From Escherichia coli (GTDB lineage: Bacteria; Pseudomonadota; Gammaproteobacteria; Enterobacterales; Enterobacteriaceae), in assembly GCF_024502345.1 (NCBI RefSeq), contig NZ_JALDNN010000001.1: a DNA stretch of 64,000 nt; one strand, given 5' to 3'. This document shows positions 41,707 to 43,984 of the stretch, in pieces. Numbering within the stretch: the stretch's first letter is position 1; every line of letters starts with the position of its first letter. The translations under genes and the position numbers were made by a program. Below the pieces are notes generated by a model that had not been told where the DNA came from, ran no database searches, and saw nothing but the letters and a program-made list of their open reading frames with translations.

Positions 41707-41815
41707 AAGTGCCTAATATGGCCGTAGTTGAGGCAATAAATAGAGGGACAAGTGACGTTAAGCTGAATTAGAGTAAATGGCGTGAGGACACACGCCATTC
41801 GAGGTTATAGTTTGA

Positions 41816-42130
41816 TTAATTTTCGAAAAATTGCTTCACAGCCCAGCCACCATGACCACCTGGAGTTATGAATGAAACAAAACCTTTGTCATCGACGCTC
41901 TGGATTTCTACCGTCATTGATTCATCTAACACGCGACATTTATTGGATGTAATGAGACTCAGCATAGCCTGTTGGTCATTGTCCTGGATGTAACTGATCA
42001 TCTCGTAAAAGTCAGTTAACTTTTTACAGTTAAATGTACCTTCTTTAAGTGTTGCGCTGTCTCCGTGACTTAGTGCGAATGCATTTGGCATCATTGCCAC
42101 AAAGATGACGGTAACGAGTAGTTTTTTCAT
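41816..42130 (-). CDS. hypothetical small secreted protein (104 aa, 2 Cys)
   Basis: signal peptide MKKLLVTVIFVAMMPNAFA; low-GC islet; 9 bp downstream of preceding ORF. Confidence 0.6.
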   Translation of the reverse strand: MKKLLVTVIFVAMMPNAFALSHGDSATLKEGTFNCKKLTDFYEMISYIQDNDQQAMLSLITSNKCRVLDESMTVEIQSVDDKGFVSFITPGGHGGWAVKQFFEN

Positions 42131-42139
42131 TTTAGCCTC

Positions 42140-42487
42140 TTATAATTCAGAACATTCACTGATGTTGTAAGTGCCTTTTCTACCATCATCGTTTACGAGA
42201 TGTAGCACGAAGATGATGGGATTGGCATCAATGAAAGATACAGAGACGTTCCCGCTTTCGGTGCTATACATCTTTGCAATCTGTTTTTCACCAATATATG
42301 AGAGATCCCAACTCACTCCGTTCAAGCTAAAATGCATCTGTTTGCCGTCAATATCGATGGAGGATTGTGCCGTAACGGTTTTCCCATTGCTGCCAATTTG
42401 ATCCTGCTGAAGAGCATCACATTTATAGGAGCTTGCATAAGTAGATAGAGGTAGTAGCAGAAGTGCAGCAAAAATTTTACTCTTCAT
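42140..42487 (-). CDS. hypothetical small secreted protein (115 aa, 2 Cys)
   Basis: signal peptide MKSKIFAALLLLPLSTYA; RBS AGGGA; low-GC islet. Confidence 0.6.
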   Translation of the reverse strand: MKSKIFAALLLLPLSTYASSYKCDALQQDQIGSNGKTVTAQSSIDIDGKQMHFSLNGVSWDLSYIGEKQIAKMYSTESGNVSVSFIDANPIIFVLHLVNDDGRKGTYNISECSEL

Positions 42488-43538
42488 ATTTTCCCTTTGC
42501 TTGGATTTGAGTTACCTATTTTGGGGTAGTCATTATAAAACTATTAATTAGTAAAACGAACAAGTTTTCATTTGTTTAGCAATGGTATTGTTTAGGTTTG
42601 ATATTATTACGTACTTTCATAGCAATAGGTTGGATAAACAGCAGTTCAGGGAACAAGTTGCACTATCTACATACTTTTCCGCTTTCCATTGCATGTTAGG
42701 TAATAGATAGCCTTTGCCCGTAAGACTAAAAATATTAGAAATGACTCATTCGAATACCTTCTATTCACCTTAATATAGGTTTGATTATTGTAATCGTTTA
42801 ATGTGTCTTATGGATTTTTTCCTACTTTTCATTTGCATAATATAGGGGGCACAGCATGCTCTTGAAATTAATTATTAAAATATTTAAATTTTACAGCACA
42901 CAACTACTTTTCGTTGTCTTATGTGTTGAACGTACTTCGAGTATAGGTAGGGTTGTATATATATTGCGTGGGTAGAGTTAGAATAGAGGAAGCATCATTT
43001 ATAGAATATTCAAGAACGTTAGCCTGTGATCAATAAATAAAAATATCAAATGGTGTTCAAACATATTTTTCTATGAAAAATCCAGCCATCTATGATGAAT
43101 TTTTAGATCCATTTTAATTAAAGTATGATTATGAACCAAGATTTAGCCAAGAATGGTGGTATAGCGCGTATCCAATGACACCGGAAAACGCATCTATGAA
43201 GTCCTTATTTATCTCTATAAGAGGAAATCAACACTAATAAAATGTAGTGATGTAACACATCGAGCAGGTTGCTCTGATGCTGGTCTTCAACTGTGGCTTA
43301 AACAGCTATCAAACTTCGGTGTTATTGAGATGAAAGAATTATCATTCTCAACTATCAATCTCAAAAAGCTAGAGAAAATAGACCTTAATTATTCCACTCT
43401 CTAAATTTATCTATTTATTTAAAGTAAAAATGAAAATATTATGGTATCAGCTACGTGGTGGTAACTGGTTTTTATGATCATAGGTACATATACAGGGAAC
43501 CCTGGAAAACGAAAGTAATATATTGATGATTTCGTTTG

Positions 43539-43796
43539 TTATAACTTCGTGGTATCAAGTCCGGCGGCTTTGAGTCGCTCGGTAAGATTTCTCATTTTGC
43601 TGAACTCTGTAGCAAAGCTGGCTTTAAGTCCTACACCTTCGCAAAACTCTTTTGCCGTGACGTTTTTCAGATGGTCAGCGTATTTGATCATCTGGAGGTG
43701 CATTTCCATCGTTTGGCTATTTCGTGGTGCGCTGCTAATGGCTTGCTTAATGTTCTCGTAGATCTGGGTTTCTGTCATTTTTATCTCACCTATCAA
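43539..43796 (-). CDS. hypothetical small alpha-helical protein, possible HTH
   Basis: 85-aa ORF (alternative start MTETQIY, 79 aa); putative helix-turn-helix around TAKEFCEGVGLKASFATEF. Confidence 0.45.
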   Translation of the reverse strand: MIGEIKMTETQIYENIKQAISSAPRNSQTMEMHLQMIKYADHLKNVTAKEFCEGVGLKASFATEFSKMRNLTERLKAAGLDTTKL

Positions 43797-43984
43797 ATTT
43801 AGATAAATAATATAAATTAGCTAATTAAGATAGTCTACAGTTTTTACCACCTGAATGATGGGTGTGAATTGTTTCTTTTTCATTACTGATATGGGGTACA
43901 CAGCGAAGACGTAATGAATGGAGGCGAGCTTGCATCTGCAAGCCTCTTCCCCTAAGCTGGCACAAAATATAGAGATTCAACCAA

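Follow-up and report, generated by a model that had tools for sequence, protein, structure and literature searches.

An AT-rich islet between rcnR and thiM of Escherichia coli as the probable remnant of integrative islands that target the thiMD TPP riboswitch

A probable fossil island beside thiM

The window analysed here, a 64-kb stretch of Escherichia coli DNA, contains between rcnR and thiM a 2271-bp islet (41707-43977) that is very probably the degraded, immobile remnant of small integrative islands whose attachment site would be the aptamer of the thiMD TPP riboswitch. It is read as a fossil of such an island because intact relatives have the same integrase, the aptamer repeats and the thiMD site; the window itself lacks both an integrase gene and attL and has a single aptamer copy, and the assignment of the islet to the island family is made by the homology of its parts to intact islands. 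Two island features belong to the islet itself, namely a fixed site that is occupied or empty from genome to genome, and a deviant composition.

Boundaries, composition and distribution

The first-pass annotation placed a low-GC islet, probably acquired horizontally, at 41707-43980, and described rcnR and thiM as neighbours in K-12. Alignment with K-12 MG1655 bears this out almost to the base: rcnR (b2105) and thiM (b2104) are adjacent there with a gap of 222 bp, BLAST homology stops on the left at 41704 and restarts on the right at 43978, and 41705-43977 (2273 bp) occupies the place of a 90-bp spacer that in K-12 leads from the rcnR stop codon to the thiM TPP riboswitch (Table 1). The AT-richness described earlier, strongest in the centre, is equally clear, with a GC content of 36.7% in the islet and 31.9% in its centre (42488-43538), the whole window averaging 49.4%; in a sliding-window analysis the islet is the lowest in GC of any 2.27-kb stretch in the 64 kb (0.24% of windows are equally low). 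The 65 bp at the left junction match nothing among related islands or loci.

The full islet, at more than 99% identity, was found in 339 of 5426 complete E. coli genomes (6%), mainly O157:H7 and O55:H7, and the site is empty in about 88-90%. The K-12-type junction is present in 5025 of the 5426, at up to three places per genome, a count that takes in genomes with intact islands because attL preserves that junction. The suspected horizontal insertion thus holds: the segment is lacking in K-12, and only the 6% carry it in full. That it might be ancestral E. coli DNA, since lost by K-12 and most strains, would accord with a left end exactly at the rcnR stop codon and with the lack of direct repeats around the segment in the window, but the probability of this is close to nil in view of the identical short junction in those 5025 genomes, a GC content 13 points below the flanks, the presence, in several genera, of homologous modules on islands that carry an integrase and have aptamer repeats at their ends, and an integrase remnant inside the segment.

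Table 1. Features of the islet and its borders (positions in the 64-kb window)
Feature	Position	Strand	Basis
rcnR	41434-41706		
Left junction in the rcnR stop codon (TGA here, TAA in K-12)	41704..41706	+	end of K-12 homology
Junction DNA, 65 bp	41707..41771	none	
Module A: gene pair for 104-aa and 115-aa proteins, with flanks	41772..42573	-	blastn and gene contexts
Terminator-like hairpin 3' of the 104-aa gene	41780..41793	-	
104-aa secreted protein (Sakai ECs_2910)	41816..42130	-	
115-aa secreted protein, predicted eight-stranded beta-barrel (Sakai ECs_2909)	42140..42487	-	
Integrase remnant, last 31 codons: IGWINSSSGNKLHYLHTFPLSIAC, in-frame stop, VIDSLC	42625..42717	+	tblastn, tblastx
3'-end remnant of a 220-240-aa replication-initiator-like winged-helix gene	42979..43124	+	blastn, tblastx
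81-aa winged-helix pseudogene, frameshift at about 43176	43125..43404	+	tblastn
Intact rptR homologue, 79 aa (Sakai ECs_2908; Pfam HTH_73)	43539..43778	-	
RptR operator-like array, three 9-bp units: TTTAGATAA, ATAATATAA, ATTAGCTAA	43798..43824	none	
Conserved right island arm (arm of attR)	43889..43977	+	alignments, motif map
attR core, 82 bp	43978..44059	+	repeated at both ends of intact relatives
thiM TPP riboswitch aptamer, complete, identical to K-12	43981..44077	+	Rfam RF00059, 71.2 bits (threshold 54.3)

Intact relatives and the attachment site

E. coli strains 789 and 58-3 have 7.7-8.8 kb between rcnR and thiM, with an integrase gene beside a second annotated TPP riboswitch, an 82-bp direct repeat, and a right junction that is base-for-base that of the window. 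The same integrase occurs in intact relatives of the islet in E. coli, Klebsiella, Citrobacter and at least eight further genera; the Klebsiella and Citrobacter islands run in the order thiM, the 104-aa/115-aa gene pair, a resolvase, TIR-STAND or SIR2 cargo, the integrase and the second riboswitch. A scan of one genome per species yielded 13 integrase loci (in Lelliottia, Enterobacter, Erwinia, Citrobacter, Silvania, Atlantibacter, Pantoea, Kosakonia and other Enterobacteriaceae). At nine of nine full-length integrases an attL-type aptamer copy starts about 160 bp and ends about 65 bp upstream, and the complete downstream riboswitch, wherever it is on the contig, is followed by thiM (and by thiD if the contig goes on). 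Arm-type repeats, G[AG]GGTACA, form clusters at the two island ends only.

The attR core repeat, 82 bp in the E. coli islands and 73 bp (43987-44059) across genera, covers the TPP aptamer between the two strands of P1, the 5' strand included and the 3' strand excluded. At attL of strain 789 the P3 loop is of host type and at attR it is foreign, a pattern that points to a crossover 3' of P3; other loci give no clear answer. Comparative anatomy suggests that the 433-435-aa tyrosine integrase would recombine the island copy of the aptamer with the chromosomal one. An occupied locus would then read, from left to right, rcnR, the native thiM promoter and a truncated aptamer (attL, without the 3' strand of P1); next the integrase, anti-phage cargo that varies, and a set of backbone genes; and last rptR, the right arm, the complete aptamer (attR) and thiM. 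Among the backbone genes are those for a serine invertase, a cI-like repressor, a replication initiator, an 81-aa winged-helix protein and the 115-aa secreted protein, the last with or without its 104-aa companion.

The anti-phage cargo of the relatives varies (GmrSD, HNH nuclease, TIR-STAND, SIR2). Some variants with the same integrase and aptamer site include a major-capsid gene (Silvania locus L021 and the element next to locus L007), and the same replication module is also present in a capsid-bearing island at thrW (L014). A sequence upstream in Silvania and Kosakonia was considered as a native promoter and dropped, as it accompanies the major-capsid gene and also precedes attL in Citrobacter; the arm of a second type of element seems the likelier identity. 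Tandem or serial insertion followed by decay is directly visible: Erwinia L017 and Silvania L021 have an additional integrase fragment upstream of attL, and L025-L027 are integrase fragments upstream of the thiM riboswitch.

Gene remnants in the central kilobase

Broken reading frames in the central kilobase had been taken for decayed genes, and the two that were quoted, MNQDLAKNGGIARIQ and MTPENASMKSLFISIRGNQH, each ending in a stop, were located at about 43131-43239; the decay can now be assigned to an integrase, a replication initiator and a frameshifted 81-aa gene. The integrase remnant matches residues 402-432 of the strain 789 integrase (tblastn E 2e-6). The replication-gene remnant is 71-73% identical by blastn to loci L013 and L014, and the intact gene of strain 789 has PHROG replication-initiator matches. 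The product of the 81-aa pseudogene, the N-terminus of which is MNQDLAKNGG..., is 77% identical over 66 aa (E 3e-33) to WP_000617145, the intact protein of strain 789. Apart from the integrase remnant, the approximately 400 bp at 42574-42979 match nothing other than, weakly, 28 nt of the spacer that follows the cargo gene in strain 58-3 (E 0.008).

The AT-rich centre (42488-43538) might instead encode an unannotated small RNA or another non-coding regulator that is the real function of the islet, for it is about 1 kb with no intact open reading frame and has two promoter-like sites on the + strand (42862 and 43102). Such sites are rarer than in shuffled sequence, however (3 versus 8.7), and Rfam across 41300-44300, at E up to 1, returned the TPP riboswitch (which ends 34 nt before the thiM start) as its sole match and no small RNAs, leaving the centre blank. 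The gene wrecks explain much of the kilobase, chiefly its right-hand half; the kilobase is not conserved outside the O157-type islet, and in NCTC9064 it is broken by an IS1 at about the position of the 81-aa pseudogene. A regulatory RNA is thus a very improbable explanation.

The integrase remnant sits to the right of the secreted-protein gene pair, an order found in no intact island, and for this reason the islet is probably the collapse of two islands integrated in tandem. Deletions would have taken the 90-bp spacer with the thiMD promoter, attL, all of the integrase but its last 31 codons, the cargo and invertase genes, and the larger part of the replication gene. The secreted-protein gene pair and the right arm would have survived, together with the three gene wrecks and an rptR that is an orphan and putatively autoregulated.

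Secreted proteins and the RptR homologue

Module A is 76-77% identical at the nucleotide level (blastn) to intact thiM islands of Klebsiella and Citrobacter. Its two tandem genes encode small secreted proteins, as the first-pass annotation proposed, both having signal peptides (MKKLLVTVIFVAMMPNAFA, followed by LS, and MKSKIFAALLLLPLSTYA, followed by SS); the mature parts are conserved and the signal peptides variable. The 115-aa gene belongs to the backbone of most island variants examined and has 42% identity to the copies of strains 789 and 58-3. The model of the 104-aa protein consists of an SH3/Tudor-like small barrel and two helices, and its two cysteines are invariant. RefSeq names this protein 'outer membrane protein'. 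Pfam has no match for either protein (for the 115-aa protein, none even at E 10), NCBIfam has no family for any of the three islet proteins, PHROGs gives near-identical anonymous families only, and PADLOC gave no more than a chance-level match. A profile of the 115-aa family, searched against 1.84 billion representatives, returned its own narrow family, of about two full-length clusters, and no annotated relative at a greater distance. Structurally, the predicted 115-aa protein has its nearest neighbours in the periplasmic lysozyme inhibitors MliC, PliC and PhiA, which are likewise small and have a signal peptide and a conserved cysteine pair, and the eight-stranded beta-barrel of which its predicted fold resembles; at about 10% identity, with no Pfam match, the likeness would be in fold only, and no lysozyme-binding motif was evident by eye.

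The small helix-turn-helix protein recognized earlier matches HTH_73 (PF24718) over residues 2-71 (E 2e-30) and is, by sequence, a homologue of RptR, which has been established by experiment as a defence-island repressor (PMC12255303). It is about 70% identical, counted by eye, to the protein of PDB 9R2Z (phmmer E 1.5e-31), and keeps all of the residues E25, E58, S60, K61, L69, A72 and L74, reported as the conserved DNA-binding and dimerisation residues of RptR (PMC12255303). The RptR site consists of at least two 6-bp palindromes (TAGCTA, TAGATA, TATCTA, TATATA) in its own promoter (PMC12255303); the putative operator palindromes of the islet, TAGATA (43800-05) and TAGCTA (43818-23), are 18 bp apart and 22-45 bp upstream of the ATG, and both fall within the predicted rptR promoter (43837..43809). 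The islet gene is 94-98% identical to the copies of strains 789, 58-3 and BL21. No defence module lies 3' of it: 130 bp past 43539 there is a convergent pseudogene, and in BL21 and E. chuandaensis the position downstream of rptR is occupied by McrX. The islet copy may be called an orphan because the defence gene that it would normally precede is gone.

Between island variants, purifying selection acts on all three intact genes, so that the islet may still do something and be other than a pure fossil. The possibility of an accessory module still at work in O157:H7 and O55:H7, an orphan repressor with two periplasmic proteins kept by selection, agrees with the fossil interpretation as to origin and differs on present function alone; the putative 115-aa beta-barrel might then inhibit lysozyme or another peptidoglycan hydrolase. 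The three genes are identical or nearly so in the 339 genomes, dN/dS against copies in other genera is 0.03-0.1 (between island variants, 0.03-0.07 for the 104-aa gene, about 0.05 for the 115-aa gene and 0.04-0.08 for rptR), and the conserved mature parts behind variable signal peptides, the putative operator and the retention of every reported RptR residue all favour function. The O157/O55 lineage is young, however, so that intactness there says little about selection, and the purifying selection was measured between island variants, not inside that lineage; NCTC9064 tolerates the IS1 in the islet centre, and no mention of ECs2908-2910 was found in a literature search that covered few subscription journals. 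On balance a working module seems rather unlikely.

The right arm and thiMD transcription

As a fossil island, the islet would have left thiMD with new upstream DNA. The right arm has one arm-type repeat, GGGGTACA (43893-43900), where intact islands have three, a palindrome, GCTTGCATCTGCAAGC (43928-43943), and a conserved run, CTTCCCCTAAGCTGGCACAAAATATAGAGATTCAA, now located where the native thiMD promoter was before the deletion. The predicted native thiM promoter, TTTACA-17-TACCAT, sits in the 90 bp absent from the window. With that promoter lost along with the spacer, island DNA must therefore drive thiMD, and the operon would be read from island-derived DNA upstream of an intact riboswitch. 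Because a sigma-70 scan of the + strand of the right arm found no consensus promoter, although the same scan does find the K-12 thiM promoter, this is a route that we infer. RNA folding of the right arm with the leader was no better than that of shuffles (z -1.08).

Implications

The islet is already on record as an O157-specific segment, whereas the riboswitch as an attachment site appears to be undescribed: the literature, in a search that covered few subscription journals, offered no description of a riboswitch as attB or of an integrase at thiM. A more general proposal, made tentatively and with slightly more doubt than belief, is that the thiMD TPP aptamer is the dedicated attachment site of a tyrosine-integrase family across Enterobacterales, the islet being a fixed fossil that makes thiMD permanently island-dependent. 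If so, this would be, as far as could be found, the first riboswitch described as an integration target, and would add a riboswitch aptamer to the short list of structured-RNA integration sites; by analogy, the aptamer may have been chosen for the same reason as tRNA genes, which is that it is long, invariant and in every host. From the island, thiMD (of which thiD is needed for thiamine synthesis) would receive both its promoter region and the 5' part of its aptamer, and at the other end the native thiM promoter and the truncated aptamer would read into the integrase gene, such that integrase expression could be coupled to thiamine status. About 6% of complete E. coli genomes, O157:H7 included, would have lost the native thiMD promoter and would read the operon from mobile-element DNA. 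One mechanism would cover the ECs_2908-2910 segment of O157:H7, the EcoBLMcrX island of E. coli B, the orphan RptR copy and the 'rcnR-thiM' defence locus, for which the entry in the supplement of a pan-genome survey gives no mobile-element type (PMC10121019). With a landing site already in place in Enterobacterales, the integrase could be put to use as a site-specific tool.

Comparison with known mobile elements

Islands with tyrosine integrases that target tRNA or tmRNA genes include CP4-57 at ssrA and P4-type elements at leuX or thrW. The thiM islands resemble them in that the integrase adjoins attL, part of a conserved structured-RNA locus forms the direct repeat, a functional target is restored at one end, both ends have arm-type repeats, and tandem insertion and decay to integrase-less remnants occur. 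They differ in that the target is a riboswitch aptamer, a cis-regulatory element where the others use an RNA gene, and in that the repeat is the 5' three-quarters of the element, so that the promoter region upstream of the operon comes from the island and no longer from the host. Unlike that of P4-type elements, the integrase has no P4-type arm-binding domain among its precomputed Pfam matches, which consist of a weak PF00589 only.

Phage-inducible chromosomal islands, including the capsid-forming ones, have an integrase, a repressor, a replication module, packaging or capsid genes, and induction by a helper phage. Intact thiM islands likewise fit an integrase, a cI-like repressor and a replication initiator into 8-14 kb, some with a major-capsid gene; the window retains only wrecks of the integrase and replication gene, and none of the functions of phage-inducible islands.

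The account of dusA-specific integrases describes islands at a single site at the 5' end of a conserved transcription unit in many bacteria (Farrugia et al. 2015, PMC4482086). As described there, these share with the thiM islands an integrase family dedicated to one 5'-end site; they target the 5' coding end of a protein gene, whereas the thiM islands target a non-coding, ligand-sensing RNA leader.

The EPEC RRDM island (Zhang et al. 2025, PMC12255303; PDB 9R2Z) encodes a 79-aa repressor of the same family as that of the islet, and both have TAGCTA/TAGATA-type palindromes with 9-bp phasing inside the repressor's own promoter. The islet rptR differs in having no restriction-modification or other defence gene downstream, and in its location, since it closes an integrative island next to a riboswitch, a setting absent from PMC12255303.

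Between thiM and mrp, E. coli B has an island with the gene for EcoBLMcrX, a modification-dependent restriction enzyme (Fomenkov et al. 2017, PMC5487053, which mentions neither riboswitch nor integrase). BL21 has lost rcnRAB-yeh and the left island end to IS1, and keeps the type IV restriction gene (EcoBLMcrX) 3' of its rptR homologue, where the islet has none. Its island and the islet have in common the site, the right arm and an rptR-like first gene (ECD_02033, 94% identical), and BL21 aligns with the window from 43545 through thiM.

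Boundaries, composition and distribution of the islet

BLAST homology with K-12 MG1655, to which the window corresponds in reverse orientation (2,225,827 down to ~2,167,812), ends at 41704, within the rcnR stop codon, and restarts at 43978, 3 bases ahead of the thiM TPP riboswitch, the gap being 90 bp in K-12 and 2273 bp in the window. These breaks agree with the islet boundaries of the first-pass annotation, which had also called the DNA strongly AT-rich: its GC content of 36.7% (31.9% at the centre, versus 49.4% for the window) is the lowest of any stretch of that length in the 64 kb. 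The deletion end coincides exactly with the end of rcnR, the stop codon of which (41704-41706) is TGA here and TAA in K-12, with the frame length unchanged. Identity to K-12 is 94.5% on the rcnA/rcnR flank (40003-41704) versus 98.1% on the thiM side (43978-46000), and the histories of these two flanks seem to differ.

Among 5426 complete E. coli genomes, 5025 have the K-12-type junction (rcnR, spacer, aptamer) and 339 contain the complete islet (identity 99% or above), the majority being O157:H7 or O55:H7; approximately 245 more align over just 0.3-0.9 kb at its right-hand end (84-89% identity). Identity to the window islet is 100% in a few small-genome strains, such as MLI023K1 and NCTC9064, the latter with an IS1 at the islet centre. 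The DNA is thus not shared with K-12 and most E. coli, and its modules match integrase-bearing islands, as expected of the horizontally acquired insertion originally proposed. The three islet genes are ECs_2908, ECs_2909 and ECs_2910 in Sakai; a literature search found no mention of them.

Intact islands at the thiM riboswitch

One of the partial matches is strain 789, in which 7.7 kb separates rcnR and thiM. Besides the islet's small HTH gene, this island carries genes for a tyrosine integrase, an HNH nuclease, a cI-like repressor and a serine invertase, together with a replication-initiator-like gene and one for an 81-aa winged-helix protein; RefSeq annotates a TPP riboswitch at either end, two in all. 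Alignment of the ends gives an 82-bp direct repeat, from CAACCAAACGACTCGGGG to GCCAGCGTAGGG. The rcnR-side copy (attL) retains the native spacer and promoter and stops just short of the 3' strand of helix P1, followed by the integrase gene; attR, on the thiM side, is a complete aptamer with island DNA 5' of it, and this island-to-aptamer junction is base-for-base that of the window. The layout recurs in strain 58-3, where the cargo is a GmrSD restriction gene, and a near-full-length integrase gene with attL is present in 168 E. coli genomes.

Homologues of the 104-aa secreted protein in Klebsiella and Citrobacter (74-85% identity) lie in 10-14 kb islands adjoining thiM-thiD, each bounded by two TPP riboswitch copies. 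Besides the 115/104 pair, these islands contain a resolvase, cargo that includes TIR-STAND or SIR2, and an integrase of 433-434 aa that is 77-98% identical across the three genera. When the integrase alignment was used to scan one genome per bacterial species, 13 loci were found, in Lelliottia, Enterobacter, Erwinia, Citrobacter, Silvania, Atlantibacter, Pantoea, Kosakonia and further Enterobacteriaceae. All nine full-length integrase genes have an attL-type aptamer copy (GTAGGG|GGCC...) upstream, starting ~160 bp and ending ~65 bp before the gene, and wherever a complete downstream riboswitch is on the contig, thiM is next, with thiD where the contig extends that far. Compared across genera, the repeat measures 73 bp and corresponds to window 43987-44059. 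Copies of the motif G[AG]GGTACA are scarce or lacking in the rest of these loci and concentrated at both island ends: the right arm (the island DNA abutting attR) has three, spaced 12 bp apart, and two are near the integrase start, the layout expected of putative arm-type integrase binding sites. In locus L010 (16512-16608) and most other attL copies outside E. coli, a perfect hairpin, GGCCGAAATTCGGCC, directly follows the truncated aptamer and might be a terminator or a substitute expression platform ahead of the integrase gene.

A second right-arm type (GGGTTGTGTCTT...CTTCCCGCTGGCATGATCC...TTAATCGCA) also abuts the thiM aptamer, in linkage with a major-capsid gene, which suggests a capsid-forming, satellite-like element that shares the integrase family and the aptamer site; the Citrobacter one is in tandem with a defence island. 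Some elements with the same integrase and site carry a major-capsid gene. A capsid-bearing island of E. coli 2013C-3252 (L014), at thrW (tRNA-Thr), shares with the thiM islands the module of replication initiator and 81-92-aa winged-helix protein, so backbone modules are common to elements with different integration sites. Together, these genes hint at a phage-satellite lifestyle for the family.

Anatomy and history of the islet

The islet retains parts of such islands (see table), and the decayed gene remnants suspected at its centre are an integrase tail (a match to the final 31 integrase residues, catalytic tyrosine region included), the 3' end of a replication-initiator gene, and a frameshifted 81-aa gene. 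The broken peptides quoted earlier are present in the sequence, MNQDLAKNGG... being the N-terminus of the 81-aa gene. The 90-bp native spacer, attL, nearly all of the integrase gene, cargo, invertase and repressor are absent. In no intact island does the integrase lie rightward of the 104/115 pair, as its tail does here, and the simplest history would therefore be two tandem islands that then underwent three deletions. In relatives, repeated insertion accompanied by decay is directly visible: Erwinia (L017) and Silvania (L021) have additional integrase fragments upstream of attL, and three further loci (L025-L027) have integrase stumps upstream of the thiM riboswitch. For the window, the two-island-then-deletion history is a reconstruction. 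As a decayed island remnant, the islet is nothing out of the ordinary; what is unusual is its probable ancestry, in a defence-island family that lands on a TPP aptamer and replaces the promoter of a host operon.

Features of the islet, of the window's prophage end and of the second right-arm type
Feature	Location	Strand	Evidence or remark
104/115 module	41772-42573		76-77% nucleotide identity to Klebsiella and Citrobacter islands
Integrase tail, IGWINSSSGNKLHYLHTFPLSIAC*VIDSLC	42625-42717		E 2e-6
Replication-initiator gene, 3' end	42979-43124		sequence match
81-aa gene, frameshift ~43176	43125-43404		77% identity over 66 aa
Small HTH gene, intact	43539-43778
Right arm, conserved	43889-43977		1 arm-type repeat (3 in intact islands) and conserved palindrome
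thiM TPP riboswitch	43981-44077		RF00059, 71.2 bits
P2-like prophage integrase, 337 aa	60423-61436	-
P2-like prophage C-repressor-like gene	61552-61923	-
P2-like prophage cox-like gene	61973-62248	+
P2-like prophage gpB-like gene	62426-62926	+
Second right-arm type	L021 16100-17116
Second right-arm type	L007 20267-20315 and DNA upstream of its attL
Second right-arm type	L026, L027, upstream of riboswitch

Expression of thiMD

The native thiM promoter, predicted as TTTACA-17-TACCAT, lies within the 90-bp spacer that is missing from the window, so transcription of the riboswitch and of thiMD there would have to begin in island-derived DNA; thiamine synthesis requires ThiD. Conservation between genera is strong over the final ~90 bp of the right arm, which fits an integrase arm, a replacement promoter, or both; a simple scan of the right arm found no consensus promoter. 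In strain 789, the P3 loop is of the E. coli type at attL and of a foreign type at attR, which suggests a crossover 3' of P3 and a chimeric aptamer in control of thiM. In intact islands the native promoter and truncated aptamer are oriented into the integrase gene, the expression of which is possibly responsive to thiamine.

Secreted proteins and the RptR homologue

The two tandem secreted proteins of the first-pass annotation are products of real genes, given a dN/dS of 0.03-0.07 between genera and variable signal peptides with conserved mature parts. No sequence or Pfam link was found between the 115-aa protein and the periplasmic lysozyme inhibitors MliC, PliC and PhiA, and a profile search gave it a tiny family of its own; the model of the 104-aa protein, an SH3/Tudor-like barrel with two helices, is uninformative about role. 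To call either of them a periplasmic inhibitor or an exclusion factor would be guesswork.

The small protein annotated as a putative HTH protein does belong to Pfam HTH_73 (E 2e-30) and matches PDB 9R2Z (E 1.5e-31), which is RptR, a repressor proven to silence an EPEC defence-island promoter by way of 9-bp direct repeats with TAGCTA-type palindromes, of which at least two sites are required (PMC12255303). The homologue retains every residue reported as conserved, and TAGATA (43800) and TAGCTA (43818), 18 bp apart, lie within its predicted promoter; it is probably still autoregulated. No gene follows it, making it an orphan. In E. coli B, the homologue ECD_02033 sits ahead of EcoBLMcrX, and transposon insertions in it lower restriction through polarity (PMC5487053). 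On the NDM plasmid pX14-3-NDM (L030, 131665-133210), an rptR homologue adjoins a tyrosine recombinase, with a BREX system nearby.

Other differences from K-12 in the window

A P2-like prophage occupies the cyaR site, where K-12 has the PR-X remnant, and window 60335-64000, absent from K-12, is one of its ends. The yeh fimbrial operon (33900-39800) is a strongly divergent allele, 84-90% identical to that of K-12, with unalignable gaps at 33929-34693, 36319-37375 and 38797-39767 and low GC (35-40%) at 38.6-39.9 kb. The yehK-yehL interval (21567-22497) has ~0.9 kb extra, in which the yehK region is repeated at 80% identity; ~1.4 kb of K-12 (2,200,822-2,202,237, yehH/yehI area) is absent at ~24560; and gatR is intact at ~57970, where K-12 carries IS3E.

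Relation to known systems

Several parts of this picture had been reported before: the McrX-bearing island of E. coli B (PMC5487053), RptR (PMC12255303), and, in strain 789, an 'rcnR-thiM' type IV restriction locus to which a pan-genome survey assigns the mobile-element type 'None' (PMC10121019 supplement). None of these three sources mentions the riboswitch or the integrase. A literature search, itself incomplete, turned up no account of a riboswitch serving as attachment site, and an earlier one is possible. In mechanism the thiM islands resemble those that target tRNA and tmRNA genes and the dusA integrases, a family that targets 5' ends; they differ from both in target only.
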